A DNA stretch of 64,000 nucleotides, taken from an uncultured delta proteobacterium. Lineage in GTDB: Bacteria; Desulfobacterota; WTBG01; CAIYCZ01; CAIRTM01. This document shows, piece after piece, positions 8,157 through 21,168 of the stretch. The stretch covers positions 96,001 through 160,000 of the forward strand of contig CAWDSQ010000007.1 of assembly GCA_963804955.1 (NCBI GenBank), given 5' to 3'. Each line of letters begins with the position of its first letter. Position 1 is the stretch's first letter. Position numbers and translations under genes: made by a program. The notes beneath the pieces were generated by a model that ran no database searches, was not told where the DNA came from, and was given only the letters and a program-made list of their open reading frames with translations.

Positions 8157-8660
8157 GTGAGGCACAGTCAGCAAAAAATCGAAGAAATAAAACGCCATAA
8201 AAACAAACCCGAGCAGCGCTTCCTGTGCGACCTTGCCCTGCGCGAGCAGGACCATATCGTTCTGGTCTATCATGCTTCATCTGCAGGCCGCATCGCCGAC
8301 ATCGACATCGCCCCCGGCTCCACAACCATTGCCCACTACTGGCAGGCAGGCGGTTATGTTCTCTGGCGCATGTTTGCAGCCGACCAAACGCTTGTCGGAA
8401 CGCTCTTTCATATCTGCGCTAATACTGATATACAGGAAACTAGCGTCAGCTATGATGATCTGATTTTAGATGTCTGGATTACCACGCAAGGGGTTGCGCG
8501 CGTGCTTGATGAGGATGAATTGGCCGATGCAATCAAGGCAGGGGTGGTCACAAATAACGAGCAGAGTTGTATTGAAAGACAGAGACAGATTATTCTTTCT
8601 GACTACGCTGCCATAATAGATCGAATACGGGATATTGAATCAGCTATTTTAAACCGGTAG
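8157..8660 (+). CDS. DUF402-domain protein
   Basis: YDDLILDVWI...VLDEDEL motif. Confidence 0.7.
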   Translation: MRHSQQKIEEIKRHKNKPEQRFLCDLALREQDHIVLVYHASSAGRIADIDIAPGSTTIAHYWQAGGYVLWRMFAADQTLVGTLFHICANTDIQETSVSYDDLILDVWITTQGVARVLDEDELADAIKAGVVTNNEQSCIERQRQIILSDYAAIIDRIRDIESAILNR

Positions 8661-8729
8661 GGTGGATTTGCCAAGCACGTCCACAGTGTTTTCAAAATTT
8701 CGTGGACACACTTCGTTATTTTACCTACG
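8657..8729. repeat. GTAG-type REP-like palindrome
   Basis: gtagggtgg...gtccac...gtggac...cctac arrangement. Confidence 0.5.
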
Positions 8730-8769
8730 ACAACCATGAACATTATTTCCCTTAGAAAGGACTGCTGCC

Positions 8770-9588
8770 ATGACTGGCGATACGCTGGGCGGCTCTACAG
8801 AATTTGAAGTCGTAAAAATCAGGGACGGTTCTGCCGAAACTTTCACGCAGGCCGTGGCGACCGAGGTGCCGTGCACAATCGTCATCAACGGCAAAGAGGC
8901 TGTTACCACCCTGATGACGCCCACTCACTTTAAGGAATTTGCCGTGGGGCATCTTTTTACCGCAGGCATTATCACGCGGGCCGAAGACATAGTCAGCTGC
9001 AGCTGCGACGAGATCAGGTGGCGCCTTGATGTGGAGACGCGGCGCGAGGTTGATCTTGATCTTTTAGGCAAGCGGGTCTACACCAGCGGCTGCGGCAAAG
9101 GGGTCATGTATGCCAATGTCATCGAGCTTTCGTCGCGCCACCCGCTGCCTTCAGGGTTCACGGTGCAGGCAGGCCATCTGAAAGCGGCCATACAGTGGCT
9201 CCTGTCAAGCTCGACACTTTTCCAGGCGACCCGCGGCGTGCACTCCGTGGCGCTGGGCCTGGGTGGCGCGCTGCCTGACATGCTTATCGACGATATCGGC
9301 CGCCACAATGCCGTAGACAAAATTATCGGGTACGGCCTGCTGCACGGCCTTGATTTTTCGCGCAGCATACTGCTCAGCACCGGCAGGACCTCCTCGGAGA
9401 TACTGCACAAGGCAAAGCGGGCGGAGATACCCATAGTGCTCTCACGCGGAGCGCCGACACACCAGACAATTCTTCTCTCGCGAGACATGGGCGTTACGGT
9501 AGCCGGCTTCAAACGGTCGGGAGACATTGTCGTCTACTCAAACTGGCAGCGTGTGCTTACCGATAGCGGCATCCCTTCAATGGAATGA
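8770..9588 (+). CDS. fdhD: Formate dehydrogenase accessory sulfurtransferase FdhD
   Basis: TSGCG, TRGVHS, DIGRHNAVDKIIG and STGRTSSE. Confidence 0.93.
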   Translation: MTGDTLGGSTEFEVVKIRDGSAETFTQAVATEVPCTIVINGKEAVTTLMTPTHFKEFAVGHLFTAGIITRAEDIVSCSCDEIRWRLDVETRREVDLDLLGKRVYTSGCGKGVMYANVIELSSRHPLPSGFTVQAGHLKAAIQWLLSSSTLFQATRGVHSVALGLGGALPDMLIDDIGRHNAVDKIIGYGLLHGLDFSRSILLSTGRTSSEILHKAKRAEIPIVLSRGAPTHQTILLSRDMGVTVAGFKRSGDIVVYSNWQRVLTDSGIPSME

Positions 9589-9703
9589 ATAAAAAATTTT
9601 TGGGTCGGTTCGCTAATTGCCCTGGGGTAAAACGTATACCAACTGATTAGATGGTGCGCGATGCGCACCCTTTCTTTCAAACCCGCAATTCGAGAGGAGC
9701 TTT

Positions 9704-11100
9704 ATGATCGCAACTTTAACATTCATGGGAGCAACAGGCACGGTTACCGGGTCGCGGTATCTTCTGAAAGCCGAAGGTAAAAAATACCTCATCGACTGCG
9801 GCCTGTTTCAGGGCTTGAAAGAAATACGGCAGCGCAACTGGGAACCCTTCCCTGTGCCGCCAAATGAAATCGACCGTGTACTGCTGACCCATGCCCATAT
9901 TGACCACTGCGGCTTTCTGCCACGCATTGTGCAGCAGGGTTTCAAAGGGCCGGTGCACTGCACCTTTCCCACGGCAGACATCTGCAGCCTCGTCCTCAGA
10001 GACAGCGCCTACCTTCAGGAAGAAGACGCGCGGTACGCAAACAAAAAAGGCTTCTCAAAGCACAAGCCCGCCCTGCCCCTCTATACTGTGCAGGATGCCG
10101 AAGATGCCATCAGCCTCTTTAAACCAGTACACTACGGCCAGGACCTCTTTTCTCAAATACCATGCGCGTCAAATTCAAGGACGCGGGGCATATTCTCGGC
10201 TCATCGTTTATCGACGTGAAGCTCATGCAGGCAGACAAGCCGACCCGCATCCTCTTCAGCGGTGACATCGGCAGCCCCGACCGCCCCATACTGCGCGACC
10301 CCACGCAGGTATTTGAAGTGGACTATCTCGTGCTTGAATCGACCTACGGCGACCGCACCCATGACCACGGCGACGACGCCCGCCGGGACGGGCTGGCCCG
10401 TATTATCAATGAAAGCGTAAAACGCGGCGGCATACTTATCATTCCGTCGTTTGCCGTGGAGCGCTCGCAGGAGCTGCTCTACTATATCCGAGAACTTGAG
10501 GACCAGAAACGCATTCCCGTGCTGCCGGTCTATCTTGATTCGCCCATGGCAGTGTCAGCCACTGAGATCTTTGAAAAATGGAAGCTTGTCTACGATATGG
10601 AAGCACGAATGCAGGAGCTCGACGGCAGGCATATCATGCAGACACAGATGCTGCATGTCGTGCGCGATGCCTCTGAGTCAAAGCTGCTGCACAATGTGAA
10701 GGGCCCGGCCATATTCATTTCCGCCAGCGGCATGCTTGAAGGCGGCCGCATACTGCATCACCTTGAGCACCGCCTTCCCTTCGCGGAAAACACTGTCCTC
10801 TTTGTCGGGTATCAGGCCGAGGGCACGCGCGGCAGGTCGATCCTCAACGGCAGCCCGACCATTAAGATTCACGGGCAGATGATTCCCGTGCACGCCAAAA
10901 TCGAGAATATCACCGGTTTCTCCGGCCATGCCGATTACAAGGAGATCCTTGCCTGGCTCATGGGCTTTAACCGGCCGCCGGTTAAAACCTTTATCGTCCA
11001 CGGTGAGCCTGATGCTGCTCAAGCCATGGCTAAAAACATCAGAACAACACTTGGCTGGGAGGTTGAAATACCGGAGTTCATGCAAACAGTTCAACTGTAG
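9704..11100 (+). CDS. MBL-fold beta-CASP ribonuclease (frameshift near 10150)
   Basis: GTVTGS and THAHIDH in the first ORF; AGHILGS, FSGDIG, ESTYG and FSGHAD in the second. The two ORFs together make one protein. Confidence 0.9.
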
Positions 11101-11121
11101 GAAGATAAAAACAATAATCAG

Positions 11122-11157
11122 AAGGCCGGGCTGCTGCACACAGCCCGGCCTTTTTTA
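11122..11157 (+). terminator. Intrinsic terminator
   Basis: aggccgggctg...cagcccggcc followed by tttttt. Confidence 0.85.
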
Positions 11158-11230
11158 TTGATGCAACTAAATCGTGACACGAACAAAAAACATACATAGC
11201 AGGCTGGAGTAAAACGGCTGCGTTGCCATC

Positions 11231-12106
11231 TCACTTGGCTTTTCGGCGCTCGTACATTTTGCAGATATCCGACAGTGCGGCAGCCATGGCGGGATTTGTC
11301 TTCATAATCTCCACGGTTTCATCAGGAGATTCCAGAAGCTTAAGATAGGCTGCCTCAACGGTATTTGTTTTCATCCGCAGAACCCCGAACAGCATATCGG
11401 CAATATCCACGCCTCTGATATTGGCATAAAAATTAGAGCTGTAATACAAGTCACACATCAGGCACAGCCGGGCTATTGCAGTGCCGGGCTTATGATGCTG
11501 GTGAATATATTTCGGGTTGAGCACATAAATTCTAATTTTTTTGATGCTGTGACAGGTTAAAAAATACATGTACCGGTTAAAATCCTTACCCTCGCCGAAA
11601 ACCTTTTCGGCAAGTTCACGCTGAGCCTTATTGAGGCCGCCGCTCTTAACGTTCTGCCAGTAGTAGCGCGTATCGATTTCAAAATAGGCAAATTCAGGAT
11701 CAAATTCTTTAAGTTTCAGAGAAAAAAGCCTGGTTCTATGCGTATGCCCCGTTTTAACCGAGTCGTAAACTTTTTTTACTTCATCTTTGCTGAGCCGGTA
11801 GTTTTCATTAGCCAGCATCTGCCGGCATGCTTCTTCCAGATTGTTGAAAATGGGGTTTGCTTCACGCCTGCCAAAATACAAAAAACCCTCTTTGCCGAGC
11901 TTTGTTTTTTCAACCGCATACATGCCGAAGTCTGCCGTGAAATAAAAATAATTCAAAAATGCAGGATCCGTGATGTTCTTATAGTCCATAGCCCGCTTGG
12001 CTGCTATGTCGGCAGATGTTGAAATAAAATCAGCATCAAAAAGGGCTGCATCCTTTTGAAATATCCCCCTGTTTTTCTTATTGGTAATAAGTTTAATTAT
12101 ATCCAT
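11231..12106 (-). CDS. Hypothetical protein resembling DPANN (Woesearchaeota-type) DGR variable proteins
   Basis: 291 aa, AT-richer than neighbours. FTAD, NPIFNN, RIYVLNPKY and a C-terminal AR...SNF.A..R.V......GV pattern. Similarity is from recall, not a search. Confidence 0.6.
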   Translation of the reverse strand: MDIIKLITNKKNRGIFQKDAALFDADFISTSADIAAKRAMDYKNITDPAFLNYFYFTADFGMYAVEKTKLGKEGFLYFGRREANPIFNNLEEACRQMLANENYRLSKDEVKKVYDSVKTGHTHRTRLFSLKLKEFDPEFAYFEIDTRYYWQNVKSGGLNKAQRELAEKVFGEGKDFNRYMYFLTCHSIKKIRIYVLNPKYIHQHHKPGTAIARLCLMCDLYYSSNFYANIRGVDIADMLFGVLRMKTNTVEAAYLKLLESPDETVEIMKTNPAMAAALSDICKMYERRKAK

Positions 12107-12321
12107 GTCTTTTCACAAAAAAGCTGTTGTCTGGTTATAGTGCATGGAGGGGTTGCCCAATCGTACCGGGCAGAGGCCAATGCTTGTGATGCCCGAATAA
12201 GGCATGCATCAATGCGCAGGCTAAATCCCCCTCCCTCCAAAAAAAACTATTTGATCAACGTATACCGATTTAAGCAATACAACCAATCAACAAATCAATA
12301 TTTACCAGATAATAGTACATT

Positions 12322-12336
12322 ACAAATATTGTGCCA
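12322..12336 (-). promoter_or_regulatory. Sigma-54 promoter candidate for the 12106 gene
   Basis: Minus strand TGGCAC-AATAT-TTGT. Confidence 0.6.
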
Positions 12337-12734
12337 ATTTGTTTAAATAAATTAATCAAGCATTTTCGATTAGTTAAAAACATGCTGGAGTTAGTAACAA
12401 CTAAAAATGTGTCTCATGATACATAAATGCACAAGCAAAAGCGTATCAAAACCTTACTGTCCCTGTCTGTTTATATAATTGGATGGCCGTAGGGTTGAAG
12501 CTAAAAAAAGAGTGGCAAAGGCAATCGTTGAGGCTCTTAAATACACATCTCCTGCTTAAAAAAGCGGCACAGGCAGCCCAGCGGCGGATTTGGATGTGAT
12601 AGGGGTTTTCGATTTTTTAGTCGAGATCTGCGGAATTAAACTTACTCAATAATTGTGAGGGTAGAAGGTGATTTTATAGCAGCAAAGTTCTTCAACCAAA
12701 TTAAACGGCTTGAGTCTAGCCGGCTCTTCTTTGC

Positions 12735-13271
12735 TCACAACCACCAGAACAGGCATGGCGCCAGGAAAACAAACGAGCCGAGGATGGCTGCCATGTAAAA
12801 AAACAAAAGGGGTATACACACCAGAAACTGCGGAAATAATTCCGGACTAAAAATCATGTTCGGGATCAATAAAACCATATAGCCAAAGATAACAAAGGCC
12901 TTGTGCATATTTTGCTCGAGCAGCATAATCGCTTGATTGCACTGAGCCTCAAATACTTCCACCTGTGCCAATCGATCCTGAACCGCGCGGACCCGCCCGC
13001 GTGCACCATATGCCTGGTCGGCAGTAATATGCATGGCCTGCAGATTTCCGGACCTGATAAGTTGTACGAGATCGCGCAGGCTTTTTTTGGCATCTGCCTG
13101 TAAACTCAGGGCAACATCAGCAGTGCAGGTGGTATCCCGTTCCGCACAGGCGGCATAGGCCTCCAGAAGCGTTATACTGTCAGAGCTGATATCATAAAGC
13201 GTTTTCTCCTGTGCAGGCGATGCAGACGGAAGCGCCAGAACGCACAAAAACAGCAGCATCATTTTTTTCAT
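12735..13271 (-). CDS. Secreted/membrane protein, CLFWWL family copy 1
   Basis: Signal peptide MKK...SPA-QEKTL, C-x6-C, CN, a hydrophobic C-terminal third, ends PCLFWWL. Confidence 0.85.
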   Translation of the reverse strand: MKKMMLLFLCVLALPSASPAQEKTLYDISSDSITLLEAYAACAERDTTCTADVALSLQADAKKSLRDLVQLIRSGNLQAMHITADQAYGARGRVRAVQDRLAQVEVFEAQCNQAIMLLEQNMHKAFVIFGYMVLLIPNMIFSPELFPQFLVCIPLLFFYMAAILGSFVFLAPCLFWWL

Positions 13272-13327
13272 AAATTGTACCCCCTTGAAAACAAGCGATT
13301 GCATTTCGGCTCTTCATCAGTCCAAAA

Positions 13328-14623
13328 TCACATTAATGCAGCCGGAACTGGCAGCAAGGTCACGTTATCTGTAGACCATTGCTCTTTCCAGGCAATCACG
13401 CTGCCATCTTCAGCCAGTGCCGAATACCCGTCTATAAATTCAGAATTGCTATATTCTAAAAAGCCGTGGTTGTCATCCTCACCGGCATCAAAGGCGTTCA
13501 CGGCAATAATGTTGTTAAACTCATGATGAAAAACCAGAACCCCCGAATGCACGCCGCCATACCATTGATAATATCCCCATACAACTATTGACCCATCCTG
13601 CTTCAGCGCAATATTATTGCTGTCTCCCGAAGCAGCCGCTGTTGCCCGAAGCCTTCCTGCGCGAATCGGAAGAGGGACATCCCTCCACCCGGATATATAA
13701 TTTATATGCCTCTGCACGACATTCCCGTCAGACTGCACCGCCACATCGAAATTGCTCCCCAGGGATATTGAAACTGCATCATTAACAGGGGTCATATAGC
13801 TGTGGGGCCATTTCGCTATCGTGCCGTCCGCCTTCACCGCCGCGCATCGACCTTCTCCTGCGCCGATGCTGACCACATCGCTGATAGCGGCAGGAACATG
13901 CATCGGCTCTTCATTCATAAAACCCCACCCGACAAGATTGCCGTCTGCTTTTAAAGCAAGAAAATGATGATAGCCGGCGGCAACCGCCACCACATCAGCA
14001 AGCCCGTCAGGAACAGGAAGCTCCTGAGGGCAGGAAAGCGCATCACATGACCACACCACCACCGTCCCGTTGTCTTTTAGCGCAACGCTGTAGTCATTGC
14101 TTTTTGCTATGGCGGTTACATTTCTGAGCCCCTCAGGGGTTTCTAGTAGTTTGCCGTCTTCAAAGCTCCATTCCACAACCGTACCGTCGGCCTTGAGCGC
14201 AAGGCTGCCATGAGTAGTTGAAGCAAGCGCTATGGCTTTTTCAGTCTTGAAAACCCGGAATTTTTTGGCCACTTCCTTCATTGGCCCTTGTTCAACAGCC
14301 GCAGTAATGGTGATCAATTTCTCGCCTGGATTTTCAGGGTTCACCTGCCCAATCCAGCGCCAGGTGCCGTTATCGGTTGCCAGTAGTTCCTGTTCTGCCT
14401 GGCCGCCGATTTCGCTCAAATCAGCCGTAACCGTAACCGGCGCAAGAGCCTCTGGCGCCTGCCGCCAGATCACCCTCACATCGCAGGTCTGCCCAACCAA
14501 CAGACGCCCCATAAGAAATATGCGATTGCGCTGCATCGAGAGGTCAAGGGGCGGCTTGCATCCTGCCGCTGCAAGCAGCCCTAGTACCGCCAGTCCGATA
14601 CATAATTTTTGTATTTTTTTCAT
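13328..14623 (-). CDS. RCC1/BLIP-II repeat lipoprotein, copy 1
   Basis: Lipobox LAAAGC and repeated ALKADGTVVxW units. Confidence 0.88.
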   Translation of the reverse strand: MKKIQKLCIGLAVLGLLAAAGCKPPLDLSMQRNRIFLMGRLLVGQTCDVRVIWRQAPEALAPVTVTADLSEIGGQAEQELLATDNGTWRWIGQVNPENPGEKLITITAAVEQGPMKEVAKKFRVFKTEKAIALASTTHGSLALKADGTVVEWSFEDGKLLETPEGLRNVTAIAKSNDYSVALKDNGTVVVWSCDALSCPQELPVPDGLADVVAVAAGYHHFLALKADGNLVGWGFMNEEPMHVPAAISDVVSIGAGEGRCAAVKADGTIAKWPHSYMTPVNDAVSISLGSNFDVAVQSDGNVVQRHINYISGWRDVPLPIRAGRLRATAAASGDSNNIALKQDGSIVVWGYYQWYGGVHSGVLVFHHEFNNIIAVNAFDAGEDDNHGFLEYSNSEFIDGYSALAEDGSVIAWKEQWSTDNVTLLPVPAALM

Positions 14624-14648
14624 TCATTACCCTTTTCAATAATATTCA

Positions 14649-14677
14649 GCAGGGGCATGGCATGCCGTGCCACTACA
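14649..14677. repeat. REP-like palindrome
   Basis: gcaggggcatggcatgccgtgccactac, a GTAG-family-like hairpin. Confidence 0.5.
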
Positions 14678-14716
14678 ACTGATTTACCTCAACCATTCCA
14701 ATACAGCCAATCCCGC

Positions 14717-15256
14717 TCACAGCCACCAGAAAAGGCACGTTGGCGATAAAATAATCGTCATGAGGAAGGACCAAAGGGTTGAGCCTATAAGAACCATAAG
14801 TTCGATCATAAATCTTACAGGGCCTTCATATAAAATAACAAGATAAAGCAACAGGGGGTTCAAAAAGCTCGCCAGATACTGCAAATTACCGAGCAGTTGA
14901 ACAAAATAATGAATTCCCGCATTGCAGCTCTCATCGGCAATTGCAATATGCGCAAGCTGCTCCCGCACAACCCTGGCGCGAACGCTCAGCGCCGAAGCCT
15001 GACCGGGGGTGAGCATTATGCGGCTGCGGTCGCCCGACTTTACCAGCCCCACAAAATCCCGCAGGCCGTTTACAGCTCCTGCCTTTATGGCCAGCATATC
15101 TTCGGAGGTGCAGGCGCTCTCCCGGTCCGCACAGGCTGCGTACGCCTCAACCAGAAAAAACATGTCCTGGCTGATATCGTTGAGTGTTTTTTCCTGTGCC
15201 CGGACTGCGGCAGGCAGCAGCGCGATACATAAGACCAATAGTATGGTTTTTTTCAT
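14717..15256 (-). CDS. Secreted/membrane protein, CLFWWL family copy 2
   Basis: MKK...VRA-QEKTL, AYAACAD...C, SCN, hydrophobic tail, ends PTCLFWWL. Clear paralog of 12735..13271. Confidence 0.85.
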   Translation of the reverse strand: MKKTILLVLCIALLPAAVRAQEKTLNDISQDMFFLVEAYAACADRESACTSEDMLAIKAGAVNGLRDFVGLVKSGDRSRIMLTPGQASALSVRARVVREQLAHIAIADESCNAGIHYFVQLLGNLQYLASFLNPLLLYLVILYEGPVRFMIELMVLIGSTLWSFLMTIILSPTCLFWWL

Positions 15257-15284
15257 TTCACACCTCCCCTGGGTGCATTCTTTA

Positions 15285-16579
15285 TCATTGTAATTCCTCC
15301 GGCACTGTTAGCTCATGCTGGCCATCCCACCACTCTTCCCATGCCAGAACGCTGCCGTCCGCGGTCAGGGCCATGCTGTTGGGCGGCGTAAAACCGCACA
15401 GGCCATCGGCTATGGCAATTATGTTTGCCAGCCTTTCATGGCTGACATAATACAAACCCGCATACTGGGTCGCGCGCCACCAGAGCATGACCGTGCCGTC
15501 TTCCTGTAGCGCCATCCAGTGACTCCCACCAGCAACTACAGCTTTTGCCCTCAAGTCGCCTGCCCGGCGAGGCAGGCTGTCACCCCGGCCGCCCCACATG
15601 ACTGCGCTGCCATTGTCTGTTAAGGCAAGAGCATTCTCCCACGCATCAATAGCCACCACGTTTTCAAGGCCTTCCGGCGCATCACAATAGTCCTCCGGAT
15701 ACGCCCAGAGATCCTCAGTTCTTACTGCAAGCCATGAAGCTACCGTACCATCGGCTTTCAGCGCATGTGCGCAGGCATTACCCGCCGCCAGTGCAACAAC
15801 ATCGGTGAGCCCTTGCGGTATGTTCAGCCCGAGGCTATCATTATCGCCCCAGGCTGCTACTGTGCCATCAGCTTTCAGCGCAAGGTTATATATGGCTGCG
15901 GCGGCTATGGCTACTATATCCGTAAGATTATCCGGCACATCGAAACTTTCATCACTGCTATTGCCCCATGCCGCTACCGTTCCGTCGGCTTTCAGCGCAA
16001 GGTTATGATAATAACCTGCAGCTATGGCCACAACATTGCCGAGACCTTCAGAGGCATAAAACGCCTCTTGATTCTGATCACATTTCACATACGAACCAGC
16101 CGTCCCGACCTGCCAGTCAACCACGGTGCCGTCAGCTTTCAATGCAAGGCTTTGGGCCGCACCGCAATCAATAGCTACTGCCTTTGCTGCCGCATTATGC
16201 ACCTGCACCTGCTTTTCGCTCGGGTATTCTTCATCATCCGCGTCCAGCGCGGTAATGCGCAGCGTCTTCTCGCCGAACGCCGGGGCGCAACCTTGCCGCT
16301 CCACCGCCAGATGCTTTGGTTATCTGCGGTCAGTTCCTGTGCCGCATCTCCGCCGATTTCACTTAAATCCGCCGTCACCGTTACCGGCACGGGGTCATTA
16401 GCCCCGGCGCGCCAAATCAGGCGCACATCGCAGGCCTGGCCCGACAGAAGCCGGCCGAGCAGAAATATGCGGCTGCGGTGCAACGACAGCGGCTCTTGTG
16501 GCTCAGGTTTTTTACATGCTGTTGCCGCCAGCAGTCCCAGCGCCGCAAAAGATACCAATACTTTTTGTAATGTCTTCAT
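15285..16579 (-). CDS. RCC1/BLIP-II repeat lipoprotein, copy 2 (frameshift near 16300)
   Basis: N-terminal ORF has lipobox LAATAC and PVTVTADLSEIGG shared with copy 1. Second ORF has ALKADGTVAAWG repeats. Confidence 0.85.
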
Positions 16580-16651
16580 GTATACCCCCGTACAGTTTGT
16601 CATAAAAGCATTTTAAGAGCATCCAGTCGTGTCCCAATGCTGTGCGCCCGC

Positions 16652-16723
16652 TCATAACCACCAGAACAGGCATGGCGCCAGGAAAACAAACGAGCCGAGG
16701 ATGGCTGCTATAATATTTCCCCA
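16652..16723 (-). pseudogene. C-terminal remnant or mini-ORF of a CLFWWL-family gene
   Basis: Encodes ...AAILGSFVFLAPCLFWWL*. 16650-16708 matches 12733-12791 at 58/59 nt. Confidence 0.8.
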
Positions 16724-16989
16724 TTAGCACCTCCTCTGTGTGATTGGATGTGAAAGTATTTTTACACTACATTCTCTGCATGCTCAGACCGTGCTGTGCT
16801 TTGGTCATGCACAATACTGCTCTGAGCCCCTACAGCAAAGATGCCGGTTTCTCTACAACCCTACATGGCAATACAAGCTCCCGGATGCCCACGGGAAGAG
16901 TAATACCAAGCCAACGCATAGGCACAATACATATAGCCCCTATCAATCATGCCACTCTAGCCATTCACGCTCACACATAAAAAAAATCG

Positions 16990-17072
16990 GGGCACCGGAA
17001 CCGCACAGGTCTGCCCTACAAGCAGCCCCAGCGCAACACTACCATCAAATTTTTTATACTGTTTTTATGCAT
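16990..17072 (-). pseudogene. Decayed 5' end of an RCC1-lipoprotein-like gene
   Basis: Minus strand AAAGGGG RBS, then AAAACAGTA-TAA-AAAATT...GCGCTGGGGCTGCTT and GTAGGGCAGACCTGT, echoing the ALGLL and VGQTC segments of the intact paralogs. Confidence 0.45.
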
Positions 17073-17128
17073 TCCCCTTTACACGGGTCCATTCATCATG
17101 AATACAATGCGCCGGGCCCCCGCCGCTT

Positions 17129-18340
17129 TCAATACTCATTATTCATTACCGGATTTTTTTGCAGTTCAGTAATATCAAGCTTATACAAAATATCCCAGCC
17201 GAAGGAGCCCGGTTCCCCCCCTATTCCGAAAAGCCACAAATTTGAGCCGGATAAAGCAATACTGTAAGGAGTTGAAAGCGGGCCATTTCCGGTTCTCCCG
17301 CCGGTGGGCGGATATATGAGACTTACGATATTTCCATCCATATCAATCTTATAAAGCATCTTTCCATATATACTGTCGGTAACCCAGAAGTATGTTCCGT
17401 CAAAAGCGATGCCATAGGGATTATCAAAAGGCAGGGGAATTGCCGTGTCGCAGAAACCATTCATATCGCATTTATTGATGCTCCTGGCTTGTCCGGCCAC
17501 GTACCAAACAGTACCATCCTTCACGAAAATACCCCTGGGGTCGCCGGGCGCACGAAAGGACGCAACCGGTTCGCCTGTTTTGGTAAACTTGTAAATGCTT
17601 TCGGAATGGAATTCGGTATACCAGATAAAGTCCCCATCTGCCGCAATACCGCGCACCTCATGATTCTCAGTCAGGGGGTAGCGTAACGATCGGTTCGGGC
17701 AAAAAATAACCAGCGTCCTCGGGAGCAGCAATGCCTGCTATAATCCGTTTTCCTGTGGAATTGTCGATGCCGAGCGTCCACAGCACCCCACCGTCAAAGG
17801 TTCCCACCGGAGTTACTGATTTCCAGTGCTGCACAACAGGCAGACTGGCAAGGGGCGGAGACCAGCCCATATCTGTTTCCTGGAGAAAAGGAATTTTACG
17901 ATTAAATATGGGTCGCAGGCGGACAAAGTCCGGCAGGAATCCGGCCATTCCCACAGCTTTCATCGTCAGGGCGGGCTCTTTCAGATTTACTCTACCCCAG
18001 ACGAAATACAGCGCGCTCCCTATGAGAGATTTAGGATTTTGACTAGAAACCCGTAATAGCGCATGTCAGCGTTCAAATCTGACCTGCTTATACTAAATCC
18101 ATACACCTCATCGAATACATACGTGCTGGTTGACCGCCAGTACATTTTGCCGCCGTAAAAGCCGACTTCCTCCCTGGCATACCATTCACTGTAATAAGAC
18201 CCATCATAAAAGCCCCAGAGCAAACCGGTGAGCCCATCGCTGGAATATGACCAGTCTGCGGCATCGGCAGGGTTGAATGGCAGAAGTACAACAAGAGTGA
18301 GGCAGGATAAAAGAATTATTTTTGCGCGTGTTGTAAGCAT
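17129..18340 (-). CDS. Secreted protein with a C-terminal beta-propeller (about 2 frameshifts)
   Basis: Signal peptide ending ADA. Three overlapping ORFs. Repeats of GI(A/F)xDGxxxW. Confidence 0.65.
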
Positions 18341-18442
18341 GTAGTCCCCTTTTTAATTTTACCCCGAAGAGGCATCCGCCGCAGCGGACATCGTGAAACT
18401 ATAACTGCGTCACCTCAATCGTTCCGGAACAGACAATCGTTC

Positions 18443-19056
18443 TCACAGCCGGAAAAAAAGAACCGGAAAAACAAGGCTCGGCAGCAAACAAGGTGCAGCA
18501 AATAAAGATTTTAACGTAGTGCATGCCCCCCATTACAAGCTGCAATACAAAAATACGGCTAGGCTATAACCGTATGCATCAACTGCAGCGCAAGCGCGAC
18601 CAGCATTCTTGCGCTATTGCATGACCCATCATGCATTTCTATTTTTGAAAACCGGCCTCGTACTTCTTCGGACCAAAAACGCAGGGCTTTCTCTTCTTCG
18701 GCAGTTAAAACCAGGGCACGCATATCGCCCGACTTTATAAGACTCTTAAGATCCTGAAGGGTCTTTTCAGCATTGGCTTTTAATGCCTTGCCATCCTCTT
18801 CAGTACAGGCAATATCATGATGTGCGCATGCCGTAAGCGTCTCTGCAAGGATAAGCGTCCGGGCGCTGATCTCGTACAGCCTGTTCTCATGCGCTTGCAT
18901 TTTGCAACTCACCCGCACCCGGCAGGACGTGTTCGCATAAACCGGCTCGGTGAAAGACAGTTCGTTTATCCGCGGCCAGGGCTGATCTTTAAACACCGCA
19001 GCTGTCAAAAGCCCCAACGCTGCAACTGTCAGTAAAATTTTATGAACGGTTTTCAC
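18443..19056 (-). CDS. Chimeric CLFWWL-family copy 3 (disrupted 3' end)
   Basis: GTG start after GAGGAG. The N-terminus KTVHKILLTVAALGLL resembles the RCC1 lipoproteins. The core LYEIS...ACA...C...SGD...SCN resembles the CLFWWL proteins. A downstream FFRL* ends at 18443. Confidence 0.7.
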
Positions 19057-19696
19057 GCTCTCCTCACTGTATGCTTTACTGCCCAGGGGTATTCGCCGGG
19101 GCTGAGACCGCACCCTGCAACTGCAAACATTGCTGCATAAATATATCTTTAGCCGTATTACTTTGAGTAAAGAAGTGCTGTTCCCGTTTTCCCCTTGCAC
19201 GTTCCCCCTGCAAGGGCAGGCAAAAAACTAAACTAACACTATTCAAATTAACGCAAGACGCGTACCAAAAAAATTAACTTGCTCTGAAAAAATCCAGAAC
19301 ATAATAAAAAGTATTGAAAAACAGATGGTTGAAAAAAATAAAAAAATAGCGGCTGCTTTGGCTCCATAAGCGGTAAAATACAATTGGCTGATTTCAGCCA
19401 GCAAAAGGGGTTGAAATAAATTTCATTGGTTGAATCCAGCCAATTACAGGTGATATGTATCGCCGGGGTTGACGGATTGAACTGCACATAACATGCCTGT
19501 TCCCTGCAATGCTTCAGATATGCCTGCCCGAATAATTTCTTGAGAAAAATGCGGCGCAAAGGTATATTTTGTGGAGAAACAGCCCAGGGTAATTCCCGGC
19601 TGACAGGAGCAAACTAAAAAAAAGAGCTCACGGGGGCCTTTGAGGGCCAACCCAGCTTCTTGAGCTTTATGCACAATATCATGACAGGACGATTGC

Positions 19697-20110
19697 ATGC
19701 CGATCTATGAATACTACTGCACGCCGTGCCACACCATTTTCAGCTTTCTGTCACGCACAGCAAACGTAAGCAGGCAGCCCGCCTGCCCTCGCTGCGGCGG
19801 TGAGATTCGCAAACAGGTTTCATCATTTGCCTTCTCCCAAAAGATGAGGGGCACTGAAAGTTTGCCCTTTTCGACACAGCAGGCAGAAGAAGGCGTTAAA
19901 AAGCTCAAAAGCGAAATCGACCGACTGAAGTCAGAGGAAAGCCCGCAGCGCGCCGCGCAGTTCAAAAAAAATTTCGAACGCTGGTCGGGCGTGAAGCTCG
20001 ACCACTCGGCTGGCTCCCTGCGCGGCGTTGAGCTTGCGCCTGAAAAAGGAGAGCCCCCTGAAGAAGAAGGCCCGCCTCCGGAGCGCGATGATACGATTTA
20101 TGATTTATAA
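19697..20110 (+). CDS. FmdB-family zinc-ribbon protein
   Basis: MPIYEYYCTPC...CPRCG. Confidence 0.9.
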   Translation: MPIYEYYCTPCHTIFSFLSRTANVSRQPACPRCGGEIRKQVSSFAFSQKMRGTESLPFSTQQAEEGVKKLKSEIDRLKSEESPQRAAQFKKNFERWSGVKLDHSAGSLRGVELAPEKGEPPEEEGPPPERDDTIYDL

Positions 20111-20118
20111 ACAAGCAG

Positions 20119-20310
20119 TTGGATTGGTTAATCTGGTTATATTAGTTTAATTGGTTTTATTGGTTGATTTGTTGAAACCGGGCTTAAATCATCTATGCTC
20201 ACACGGACGATCTTCAGAGACATTGCTGGTTGTCAATTGATGGTTGTTCATTCATCTAACGAGCATTGACCTTTGACTATTGACCACTGACCAATAAACC
20301 ATTGACCATT
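20119..20310. repeat. Degenerate 9-mer and 7-mer tandem repeats
   Basis: ttggttaat-like units (20119-20176) and cattgac/ctttgac/tattgac/cactgac units (20263-20310). Confidence 0.65.
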
Positions 20311-20316
20311 CCCTGC

Positions 20317-21168
20317 ATGATGACCCTTGACCAGCTTCGCACAAACAAAGTGGGCCTGGTTCTCTCATCAGGCTTTTTCGGCTTCTACGCGCACGCGGGC
20401 TGCCTGTGCGCCCTTTCCGAAATGGGCATTCATCCGATGGGATATGCCGGCAGCAGCGCCGGCGCCATCATAGCCGCAATGGGGGCCTCGGGCATGGCCT
20501 GCGAAAAAATCCGCGAGCGCCTGTTCCCCCTGAAAAAAAAAGACTTCTGGGACCCTGAGCCATGGTACCGCGTGGCGCTGCACGGACTTCGCCTGTTTCG
20601 CGGGTGGCATGGCTACCTGAACGGCGACAGGTTCGCAACACTGCTGCAGCGCATGCTGCCCGTAGCGACTTTTGAAGAGCTGCGCTGCCCCTGCGTTATA
20701 ACTACCATTAATTTAAACACTAAAAAACGCGAGTGGCGCACTGCCGGAAATCTTGCTGATGCGGTGCAGGCATCCTGCACCGTGCCCTGGCTGTTCAAGT
20801 TCAAAATCATGGACGACGCCCTGCATGTTGACGGAGGATTTGCCGACAAGGCGCCGGTCGAGGCACTTGCCCGGCACATGCAGCCCGATGTGCTCATCGT
20901 GCACTACCTGAAATCAAGCAACCTGCGCGGCGATGATCAGTCGTTCCTCAACCGGCGATTCTCAGCCGGCAAGGCCAAAACTCTTGCCGTCACCATCGGC
21001 CGCCACGAGCACTACCTCACGCAGAAGCGGCTTGTCGAGCAGATGGGCATCCCTGTGCTTGAAATAGCCCCCGAGCTTCCTTCTGTCTCCCCTGCTCATA
21101 TTGACCGCGGCCCTGCGGCTTTTGAGCAAGCACGACAGCAGACACTGCTGTTATTGAACAGCCTATAA
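20317..21168 (+). CDS. Patatin-like phospholipase
   Basis: GSSAG nucleophile elbow and DGG motif. Confidence 0.88.
   Translation: MMTLDQLRTNKVGLVLSSGFFGFYAHAGCLCALSEMGIHPMGYAGSSAGAIIAAMGASGMACEKIRERLFPLKKKDFWDPEPWYRVALHGLRLFRGWHGYLNGDRFATLLQRMLPVATFEELRCPCVITTINLNTKKREWRTAGNLADAVQASCTVPWLFKFKIMDDALHVDGGFADKAPVEALARHMQPDVLIVHYLKSSNLRGDDQSFLNRRFSAGKAKTLAVTIGRHEHYLTQKRLVEQMGIPVLEIAPELPSVSPAHIDRGPAAFEQARQQTLLLLNSL

Follow-up and report, generated by a model that had tools for sequence, protein, structure and literature searches.

A probable bacterial offshoot of a DPANN DGR-target family with a fixed former variable region

AvpA is a DGR variable protein of Nanoarchaeota (PDB 5IOO) and carries a tail of 46 residues after its variable region (VR) (Handa et al. 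2016, PMC5006420). Some AvpA homologues in Woesearchaeota genomes are marked 'no DGR' in Table 3 of the same paper, and in its account no ligand or function is known for the DPANN DGR families. Other described variable proteins are Mtd, TvpA and TaqVP, which are of bacterial or phage origin and have the FGE-type C-type-lectin (CLec) fold. Like the protein described here, these have a CLec scaffold with a C-terminal variable binding surface. They differ from it in belonging to another CLec subclass with weak structural similarity, and in being diversified by their own DGRs.

Here we describe a bacterial relative of the archaeal proteins. It is encoded in a 64,000-nucleotide stretch of DNA from an uncultured delta proteobacterium of sediment, the whole of which is called the window below. 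The ORF list of the window places the gene on the minus strand, and its parts are as follows.

11231..12106, minus strand: whole coding sequence, 291 aa and stop, for a predicted AvpA-like C-type-lectin-fold protein, a probable bacterial offshoot of a DPANN DGR-target family (from the ORF list, homologues, AF2 model, structural matches and dN/dS).
11480..12106, minus strand: N-terminal part, aa 1-209, predicted core of the CLec-type fold with inserts and the blocks FTADF, ANPIFNN, AEKVFGEGKDF and RIYVLNPKY (from the family consensus, the secondary structure of the model and the 5ioo alignment).
11372..11479, minus strand: former variable region (ex-VR), aa 210-245, AIARLCLMCDLYYSSNFYANIRGVDIADMLFGVLRM, probably homologous to the archaeal DGR variable region and frozen here (from coordinates, archaeal TR/VR translations, entropy and codons).
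11234..11371, minus strand: C-terminal helical tail, aa 246-291, with three predicted helices after the ex-VR (H250-259, H261-270 and H272-290 in the model).

We consider it likely, with a probability of roughly 0.8, that a DPANN DGR-target gene was acquired by the ancestor of this bacterial genus and that one DGR-made variant was fixed as a binding site. The donor to this ancestor, of a Desulfobacterota-type genus, would have been a DPANN-type archaeon, and the gene may have come by itself or together with a cassette that has since disappeared. The acquisition would have locked in one particular DGR-generated variant, and the Tyr/Asp/Asn/Ser-rich patch of the ex-VR would now serve on the CLec scaffold as a binding site whose specificity no longer changes. 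That the bacterial protein would bind a ligand we infer from its fold and its family only.

The ORF is real and under purifying selection, with a whole-gene dN/dS of 0.03-0.21 in pairwise comparisons of the bacterial orthologues. It had been noticed in the first-pass annotation as AT-richer than its surroundings, and its GC is indeed 0.429 vs 0.524 for the window; GC3 is 0.49 vs 0.69 in the neighbouring FdhD and beta-CASP genes. The spacer upstream of the gene is also of lower GC. The product is predicted to be a soluble protein with neither signal peptide nor membrane segment, and no hydrophobic segment was found in it (maximum 15-residue Kyte-Doolittle mean, 1.05). Pfam gave no match at E <= 10 and PHROG and PADLOC gave none, while the only NCBIfam match, to PurS at E 0.15, was taken as noise. 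The PADLOC matches of one fused family protein, P0100, concern its kinase domain only.

These searches notwithstanding, the gene is not the orphan it was taken for. A second copy, 99% identical, is present on contig C31 of the same assembly, orthologues are found in 3/4 congeners, and the family comprises 356 representative clusters at E <= 0.001, with 196 at E <= 1e-10. The two copies in the source assembly differ at 19 nt, of which 17 are synonymous and 2 cause conservative N-terminal changes.

A CLec fold had been expected for the product, and it is predicted to have the AvpA subclass of this fold. The comparison sets a predicted model, not a solved structure, against 5IOO; the AF2 model has a pLDDT of 88.1 and a pTM of 0.82, and the block pLDDT of its C-terminal tail is 84-96 from residue 251 on. 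In Foldseek, 5IOO was the sole significant match (E 4.3e-5, prob 1.00, TM 0.62 target-normalised). It was also the top match in VIA-align (Z 15.3, rmsd 3.1 A, 200/209 residues aligned), where model residues 1-246 superpose on 5IOO residues 8-210; the second match was the DGR protein TaqVP (5VF4) at Z 4.2. The relationship to AvpA appears to be structural, with no detectable sequence similarity. Among PDB sequences 5IOO was found at E <= 10 neither by phmmer nor with a 126-sequence profile. The AvpA motifs GxxVVVYAH, HPxxxPFxG and RFxGV were not found in the window protein; only the beta-5-like LFGV/LRGV resembles RFxGV, by eye. The one match that the PDB profile search returned was to the de novo four-helix protein 4D2, over a stretch of 29 residues, and it was judged spurious.

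To go by the published description of AvpA, the likeness extends to the layout of the protein. Both have an internal variable region in which about 12 AAY-type codons stand around fixed scaffold residues, including an aromatic one. The beta-5 motif, hydrophobic-x-G-V, reads RFxGV in AvpA, LRGV in the DPANN family and LFGV in the window protein, and the predicted helical tail after the ex-VR matches that of AvpA in place and length (~46 residues). AvpA belongs to an active DGR in an archaeal host, whereas the window gene is bacterial, has no template repeat (TR) or reverse transcriptase (RT) and has a frozen VR. The Woesearchaeota homologues listed as 'no DGR' resemble it as CLec-type DGR-target relatives that have no cassette. 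They are archaeal, however, and may be trans targets, whereas the window gene lies in the other domain and has been fixed over long divergence.

Significant full-length similarity and common motif blocks place the 291 aa protein in an uncatalogued DPANN DGR-target family. Archaeal homologues are 30-45% identical to it, with E down to 1e-34, and archaeal members such as those at loci L011, L015, L024 and L026 match it in length and architecture. Alignments of 126 and 25 members give the consensus blocks FxTADF, NPIFxN, AERVYGxGxDF, TRIYVLNPxYV and AIARAC...LRGV. The blocks FTAD, NP..NN, L..E.V.G.G.DF, RIYVLNP.Y and AR..L..F...S.F.A..R.V....LRGV, the last seen in ARLCLMCDLYYSSNFYANIRGVDIADMLFGV (residues 212-242 of the protein), had been named in the first-pass annotation. 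All of them reappear in the family alignments and are therefore real family motifs, not chance resemblances. Archaeal clusters also appeared in a protein atlas at scores of 0.88-0.89, below its 0.9 line, and were used as a lead only.

The suggested relatedness to DPANN archaea is borne out by the location of the family. Outside the same-genus bacterial orthologues, 37/37 loci located in species-representative genomes with a 10-sequence family alignment lie in archaeal MAGs, most of them labelled Woesearchaeota or Nanoarchaeota. The host MAGs are 0.9-1.7 Mb.

As had been proposed, the archaeal relatives are genuine DGR targets: alongside the VR they have an RT and a TR with mismatches at adenines. 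At 12/37 loci a repeat of 88-115 bp lies 400-560 bp downstream. Almost every mismatch sets an A of the downstream copy against G/T in the gene (e.g. 21/21, 12/12 and 7/7). RVT_1 (Pfam) adjoins the TR in 11 of those 12 loci, and tblastn places an archaeal DGR RT at 13/37 loci. The TRs translate to ...ARACWLNNFNNNSNFNANxRNVDNNN...LRGV, and the archaeal DGRs rewrite about 12-14 codons near the C-terminus. Trans targets were found on other contigs of one archaeal assembly, with 9/10 and 13/13 mismatches at TR adenines. The other 24/37 loci have no cassette within the fetched DNA, so that non-DGR copies exist in archaea too. Archaeal family members can thus have TR and RT adjacent or in trans, whereas neither was found for the bacterial gene. 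The order in the archaeal cassettes is target, TR and RT, with no room between them for an Avd accessory gene. The window, the orthologous bacterial locus L047 and five of the archaeal loci with a cassette gave no conserved hairpin in an inverted-repeat search for an IMH element and hairpin or cruciform 3' of the VR, so that the feature could not serve as a marker.

Twelve positions of the window protein correspond to AAC-type Asn codons of the archaeal TRs, and their residues are, in order, C, D, Y, Y, S, N, Y, N, G, I, A and D. Residues of the set N/D/Y/S/G/C occupy 10/12 of these positions vs 73/279 elsewhere (p 9e-5). NNY codons are found at 12/12 vs 155/279 elsewhere (p 0.001), a statistic that in part restates which amino acids are present, since C, D, Y and N are encoded by NNY codons only. 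A broader 15-residue NNC set is weakly enriched (12/12 vs 215/279, p 0.048). Together, the residues and codons at these positions look like a compositional fossil of adenine mutagenesis and point to a DGR origin.

The gene was found in 4/5 genomes of one genus. It is absent from the rest of the family (0/12 of the genomes examined) and from the sister family (0/4), and was found in 0/400 other genomes of the phylum. The protein family is present in 34/301 genomes of the archaeal phylum (33/300 without the unpublished G657), often in several copies. The bacterial sequences form a monophyletic clade (100 SH-aLRT) with a long stem (1.23), and the nearest outgroup sequences of this clade (P0012, P0019, P0023 and P0050) come from metagenome contigs that have no taxon label. 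The family tree is unrooted, and its placement of the clade as nested within archaea depends on the midpoint drawing and a 93% unstarred branch. The proposed transfer from an archaeon to a bacterium fits the distribution and the tree, and since the tree is unrooted we infer its direction. The best reading of the confinement to one genus and of the monophyletic clade would be a single acquisition in the recent range.

The donor may have been something other than a DPANN cell, for instance a virus, a plasmid or a CPR bacterium that had a DGR of the same type and acted as an intermediate. DGRs are often phage-borne, and the closest outgroup proteins lie on the unlabelled metagenome contigs. We regard such an intermediate as unlikely, as no relative was found in 2.9 million viral contigs (two pattern-based scans of limited sensitivity), all 37 labelled loci are archaeal, and the neighbourhood of the bacterial gene showed no genes of mobile elements.

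Less probable still is a transfer in the reverse direction, or a bacterial form that is ancestral. On that view DPANN archaea would have gained a CLec gene from bacteria, and only in them would it have become a DGR target. The present data give no root for the tree, in which the bacterial clade stands on one side of a single long branch, and this would suit such a reading. Against it stand the confinement of the gene to one genus (4/5 vs 0/16 in the rest of the order, and none in the 400 other genomes of the phylum) and the wide, often multicopy, occurrence of the family in the archaeal phylum and across its clusters. The bacterial residues at the template-Asn positions also have the composition expected of adenine mutagenesis, and the gene is AT-richer than its bacterial neighbours.

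Acquisition from a DPANN-type archaeon followed by fixation, the reading that we prefer, is further addressed by the behaviour of the ex-VR within the genus. Throughout this one genus, purifying selection has kept the once-variable codons fixed and conserved. Entropy at the variable sites is 0-1.3 bits in 14 distinct bacterial sequences vs 3.0-3.7 in 118 other members of the family, and the most variable sites of the stretch in bacteria are F220 and R240, which are scaffold positions in archaea. Pairwise dN/dS between the bacterial orthologues is 0.03-0.26 with the ex-VR included and 0.00-0.26 in the ex-VR, with dS up to about 1.4. The ex-VR codons differ between orthologues by synonymous wobble only, and the congener genomes carry the same ex-VR. 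Over the covered parts of the gene, contigs from three other samples show the same synonymous differences only; these are Logan contigs from four runs and not raw reads, in short low-depth pieces with 0.25 of the sampled words in the best run, and they lend weak support. As assembled contigs were compared, rare within-population variants would not show.

The bacterial gene does not work as a DGR target, as TR, RT and VR hypervariability were all not found. The first-pass annotation saw no RT or template repeat in the window, and none was found in the 4.26 Mb source assembly, which is 87% complete, so that these absences hold for the assembled part. A genome-wide search for an RT and for a copy differing at adenines had been proposed. 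The adenine-tolerant scan of the whole assembly returned only the gene and its C31 copy, and the assembly yielded neither RVT_1 nor a tblastn match to five archaeal DGR RTs. No second ex-VR copy or TR-like sequence was found in four congener genomes. As a positive control, the same approach recovers the TRs at the 12 archaeal loci and the trans targets in the archaeal assembly.

It had been left open whether the gene is fixed or diversified in trans, and the evidence favours the first of these. Diversification by a distant RT and template, perhaps within the 13% of the genome that the assembly lacks, would have precedent in the trans targeting of the archaeal relatives, and the congeners G402 and G403 do have RT genes on other contigs. 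These RTs, however, are of the group II intron type or unclassified. The ex-VR, moreover, is protein-identical in the two copies and nearly invariant across the 14 bacterial sequences despite synonymous divergence that reaches a dS of about 1, and with the failed searches for a template and an RT and the synonymous-only differences in the other samples this makes a working trans target very improbable.

The ever-changing binding site of DGR variable proteins makes them difficult to study. If acquisition and fixation is the right reading, the bacterial gene provides a natural and long-conserved single variant of a normally hypervariable protein, a rare fixed snapshot whose bacterial host genome is far larger and easier to work with. 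Such a constant bait, with one sequence and one presumed ligand, could make the question of what DPANN DGR targets bind a testable one. The gene would also illustrate that a DGR target can persist once its retroelement is gone, pass from one domain to another and stay under purifying selection. It would be a record of genes moving from DPANN-type archaea to a genus of Desulfobacterota type, with a bearing on the partners of these tiny archaea. A bolder reading, which we put forward as a doubtful one, is that the frozen patch is a 'winning clone' from the DGR library of a DPANN archaeon and recognises a molecule of the bacterium or its partner. The transfer would then be the footprint of contact between a Woesearchaeota-type cell and a relative of sulfate reducers, and the protein would be kept as a decoy or sensor for that interaction. 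On this bolder reading, what the hypervariable archaeal family binds could for the first time be approached, through the fixed bacterial protein.

The surroundings of the gene are constant. In the genomes of the genus that carry it, it always lies beside the same beta-CASP gene, and the neighbours beta-CASP, FdhD and DUF402 are common to three independent metagenome contigs and three congener genomes, which all but excludes the contig chimerism that was to be checked. An assembly or binning artefact, with an archaeal fragment joined to a bacterial contig, could explain why the gene and its upstream spacer have a lower GC and is nevertheless virtually discounted, as the gene lies inside a 560 kb contig, its order recurs on C31 as well as on those contigs and genomes, and contigs assembled from other runs span portions of the gene and flanks. 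Two further features flank the coding sequence.

12309..12337, minus strand: putative promoter-like site, which precedes the ATG by some 200 nt, either sigma-54-like, TGGCACaatatTTGT (12322-12336), or sigma-70-like, TTGGCA-17-TATTAT (from motif scans).
11120..11154, no strand assigned: GC-rich hairpin of 13-14 pairs between the convergent beta-CASP gene and the 291 aa gene, terminator-like on both strands (from a consensus scan and reading of the sequence).

A host sigma-54 promoter had been proposed for the gene, and this part of the annotation is not supported. The -24/-12 consensus of sigma-54 is TGGCAC-N5-TTGCW, and the one relaxed match here is TGGCAC-N5-TTGT, with TTGT and not TTGC. It is no better than chance, as 40/100 shuffles give at least one such match. 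Three orthologous upstream regions lack the site, which is kept in the near-identical copy on C31 alone, and a sigma-70-like match of equal quality overlaps it; sigma-70-like sites themselves number 2 vs 3.4 expected. Elsewhere in the source genome there are seven genes with an FGE-sulfatase domain, which are unrelated to this locus.

The gene described here is best read as a domesticated former target of a diversity-generating retroelement (DGR), residing in another domain of life. It is named below for AvpA, the variable protein of a Nanoarchaeota DGR (PDB 5IOO).

11231-12106, minus strand: AvpA-like gene, an ORF of 291 aa

The ORF was found where the first-pass annotation had placed it, and the C-terminal string quoted there was located at residues 212-242. 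The AT-richness claimed for the gene was also confirmed (GC 0.429 versus 0.524 for the window), and GC3 is 0.49 as against about 0.69 in the adjacent FdhD and beta-CASP genes. The 291-aa protein has zero matches in Pfam at E <= 10, none in PHROGs, PADLOC or the PDB sequences, and only noise in NCBIfam. The label of orphan nevertheless does not hold. An exhaustive search of 1.84 billion representatives returned 356 clusters with E values of 0.001 or below, of which 196 reach 1e-10 and 11 reach 1e-30, and a word-indexed search returned 11 proteins of 63-91% identity and one more at 40%.

The assembly (G000; 4.26 Mb, 36 contigs, 87% complete) contains a second copy of the gene on a 16 kb contig, C31. 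This contig is collinear over its whole length with window 8171-20513 (87-97% identity) and therefore represents either a variant from another strain or a segmental duplicate, and the two versions of the 12 kb segment reflect either strain heterogeneity in the bin or segmental duplication. The two gene copies differ at 19 nucleotides, comprising 17 synonymous changes and two conservative replacements near the N-terminus (D33E and M40L). Orthologues with 66-76% amino-acid identity occur in the same gene setting on three independent metagenome contigs. Compared pair by pair, the five copies available as DNA have dN/dS of 0.03-0.21, and their dS reaches about 1.4. Judged from these copies, the gene is real and under selection.

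[quoted passage not shown] The AlphaFold2 model, built from a 126-row alignment, has a mean pLDDT of 88.1 and a pTM of 0.82. Foldseek against the PDB gave 5ioo_A as the sole significant match (E 4.3e-5, probability 1.00), an entry titled 'Accommodation of massive sequence variation in Nanoarchaeota by the C-type lectin fold'. An independent aligner run against representatives also put this structure on top (5ioo_B, Z 15.3, rmsd 3.1 A, 200 of 209 residues, model range 1-246). Its second match was the Thermus DGR variable protein TaqVP (Z 4.2), and all remaining matches involve the helical tail only. Handa et al. 2016 (PMC5006420) describe AvpA as a protein of no known function in which 12 variable residues surround a fixed Phe in an internal variable region (VR; residues 181-203); the IMH encodes its beta-5 RFxGV motif, and the VR is followed by a tail of 46 residues predicted to form two helices. 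The layout of the window protein is the same: the stretch matching the archaeal variable region (ex-VR; residues 210-245, window 11372-11479) contains LFGV at 239-242 and is followed by three predicted helices at 250-290. The link to AvpA is structural only, as 5ioo was found neither by the single sequence nor by a profile.

The closer relatives form an uncatalogued family in DPANN-type archaea. Consensus sequences from 126 and from 25 members of the family reproduce the motif blocks that the first-pass annotation had listed for such proteins. In distant members AIARAC is followed by scattered positions rich in N, D, Y, S and G amid fixed F, S, F, A, R, V and LRGV. When each prokaryotic species, represented by one genome, was searched with a pattern, 37 loci were found, and all of them lie in MAGs of archaea (with titles of Woesearchaeota, Nanoarchaeota, Nanoarchaeia, 'archaeon' or 'uncultured Methanosarcinales'). 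The genomes of four traced loci, one of them titled 'Methanosarcinales', measure 1.1-1.3 Mb.

Comparison of each locus with itself revealed a DGR signature in 12 of the 37. In these, the C-terminal region of the gene is repeated 400-560 bp downstream over 88-115 bp, and where this template repeat (TR) differs from the gene, it nearly always has A and the gene G or T (21/21, 21/21, 12/12, 12/12, 8/8 and 7/7 of the mismatches in example loci; 12/17 in the least clean). Of 18 tested ORFs that overlap or follow the TR, 14 match the reverse transcriptase (RT) domain RVT_1 of Pfam, and 11 of the 12 loci have such a match. With tblastn using five of these RTs, an RT was found in 13 of the 37 loci, including the twelfth TR locus and L029, in which no TR was detected. 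Read in the frame of the gene, the templates encode ...ARACWLNNFNNNSNFNANxRNVDNNN...LRGV. In one archaeal assembly, two further contigs carry family copies that match the cassette template, 9/10 and 13/13 of the mismatches being at template adenines; a third copy has no match to it. Given the TR/RT cassettes and the adenine-patterned copies on other contigs, the archaeal relatives are bona fide DGR targets, both in cis and in trans. No cassette was found in the DNA covered at 24 of the 37 loci, most with several kb of flank; their genes may be diversified in trans or may lack a cassette altogether. Handa 2016 (PMC5006420) likewise marks a few AvpA homologues of archaea as 'no DGR'.

Several features of the archaeal loci are recorded separately. 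In six of the 12 cassettes (L010, L027, L030, L037, L039 and L041) the RT falls into two ORFs that overlap or adjoin, with part of the RVT_1 domain in both halves in four; this could reflect recurrent frameshift, decay or sequencing error, and the adenine-mismatched repeats suggest that the split-RT cassettes have been active. Several archaeal copies (G414, G698, G621, G573 and others) carry one or two in-frame stops (TAA, TAG or TGA), and are possibly pseudogenes arising as a by-product of mutagenic retrohoming or through decay. MAGs titled 'uncultured Methanosarcinales archaeon' hold family loci L010, L015, L019, L022, L023, L025, L027, L028, L030, L031, L035, L038 and L042. Some of these loci bear DGR cassettes, and the one genome traced is as small as about 1.1 Mb; the label given to the taxon is probably wrong.

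Adenine mutagenesis has left a fossil in the window gene. Where the archaeal templates encode Asn (12 positions), its protein has C, D, Y, Y, S, N, Y, N, G, I, A and D. Residues of the set N/D/Y/S/G/C, which dominates archaeal VRs, occupy 10 of these 12 positions versus 73 of 279 elsewhere in the protein (Fisher p 9e-5). NNY codons are found at 12/12 versus 155/279 (p 0.001), a measure partly redundant with residue identity, and the broad 15-residue NNC set is marginally enriched (p 0.048). Across orthologues the codons at these positions show C/T wobble only (TGT/TGC, GAC/GAT, TAT/TAC), which is ordinary mutation under the filter of selection.

The gene had been proposed to be either fixed or diversified in trans, and it is the first alternative that stands. 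The assembly, 87% complete, yielded neither RVT_1 nor a tblastn match to RTs of the archaeal DGRs. For a TR, the 108-nt ex-VR was slid along both strands of the 36 contigs, with any mismatch forgiven at a genomic A; nothing passed but the gene (108/108) and its C31 copy (106/108). A 181-nt query across the ex-VR matched only the orthologous gene in the four other genomes of the genus (81-93% identity in three), all remaining matches being due to chance and no longer than 29 nt. RT genes lie on other contigs in two congeners: one above the group II intron RT/maturase cut-off, one truncated and of group II intron type, and two long and unclassified. At the archaeal variable positions (218, 219, 221-223, 225, 227, 229, 230, 232 and 234-237) column entropy is 3.0-3.7 bits in 118 non-bacterial rows versus 0-1.3, mostly 0, in 14 distinct bacterial sequences. 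The most variable positions of the stretch in bacteria are F220 (Y/F/L/V) and R240 (V/F/I/T/M), which in archaea are scaffold positions with a fixed Phe and the Arg of LRGV. To judge from the aligned sequences, constraint is inverted: the archaeal scaffold sites 220 and 240 vary in bacteria, and the archaeal variable sites are invariant. Contigs covering the ex-VR from three other samples show two or three differences (two synonymous, as in C31, and one further synonymous in one run), which is weak evidence because these are contigs and not raw reads.

Occurrence of the gene or its family among genomes
Host genus, including G000: gene in 4 of 5 (the genome without it is 90% complete)
Remaining genomes of the host family: none of 12
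The order's sister family: none of 4
Other genomes of the host phylum: gene or family in 0 of 400
Archaeal phylum of one cassette genome: family in 34 of 301 (33 of 300 without the unpublished G657), often in several copies

The gene adjoins beta-CASP in all three positive congeners, in which the ex-VR is the same. Named relatives of the adjacent FdhD occur in Desulfobacterales, Desulfobacteraceae, Desulfotignum and 'Deltaproteobacteria' MAGs. A quick maximum-likelihood tree was made from 133 rows (the window protein, 14 bacterial rows, 36 archaeal loci and 82 representatives of 200-320 aa), leaving out L042 and longer, shorter or fused representatives. The bacterial rows form one clade (100% SH-aLRT) with a stem of 1.23 substitutions per site and short internal branches. 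Drawn from the midpoint, it lies beside the metagenome proteins P0012/P0019 and P0023/P0050, inside the family (93%, not starred). As the tree is unrooted, topology alone does not give the direction of transfer; the distribution, the fossil signature and the lower GC point from archaeon to bacterium. The core of the earlier reading, a CLec-fold relative of DPANN DGR targets transferred into a bacterium, is supported. The main texts of the DGR papers Handa 2016 and Roux 2021, as far as consulted, do not describe a DPANN DGR target with a frozen descendant in bacteria that stands without a cassette.

In analogy to DGR proteins such as AvpA, the ex-variable residues would form one surface patch on the CLec scaffold. 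In the bacterium this patch, with Tyr, Asp, Asn and Ser abundant, would be of a single composition conserved across the genus, which would imply one constant ligand for the bacterial protein. The family looks cytoplasmic, since a hydrophobic segment is present in only 1 of 133 rows and absent from the window protein. Two metagenome proteins represent rare fused forms, in which the CLec-type domain follows an N-terminal Ser/Thr kinase (P0100, 592 aa) or a prokaryotic RING finger (P0096, 321 aa). Such fusions fit a sensor or recognition module and hint at intracellular signalling roles for some family members.

The gene appears monocistronic. It has an upstream spacer of 628 bp and shares a strong hairpin with the convergent beta-CASP gene. 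This beta-CASP/MBL gene is also convergent beside it on the three metagenome contigs (about 90% identical), followed by FdhD and DUF402. A sigma-54 promoter had been suggested.

12322-12336, minus strand: sigma-54-like site TGGCACaatatTTGT, the sole window match to a relaxed sigma-54 pattern

The suggestion is not supported. The pattern had at least one match in 40 of 100 shuffles, the site is kept only in the near-identical C31 copy and is absent from the three orthologous contigs, and a sigma-70-like match (TTGGCA-17-TATTAT) overlaps it.

The beta-CASP/MBL RNA-metabolising hydrolase (9704-11100, plus strand) is present as two overlapping ORFs in the window, due to a one-base difference in a T-run around 10147-10152 (T4 in the window, T5 in C31). 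It is a single frame of about 470-500 aa in C31 and the three metagenome orthologues, and the split is either an assembly error or a genuine frameshift. Elsewhere in G000 there are seven FGE-sulfatase (PF03781) matches, on contigs C24, C13, C5, C29 and C20, one pair of which is interrupted by TGA. These were rejected as ordinary CLec/FGE-type genes, unrelated to this locus, in an assembly with no RT. On the minus strand at 12735-16304 lie two tandem pairs, each an RCC1-repeat protein (431 and 339 aa) with a small protein of 179-189 aa whose ends are hydrophobic and for which Pfam gave no match. Positions 12733-12791 and 16650-16708 share a repeat of 59 bp. The tandem-pair block is absent from the orthologous contig L048, and the AvpA-like gene therefore borders a variable region.
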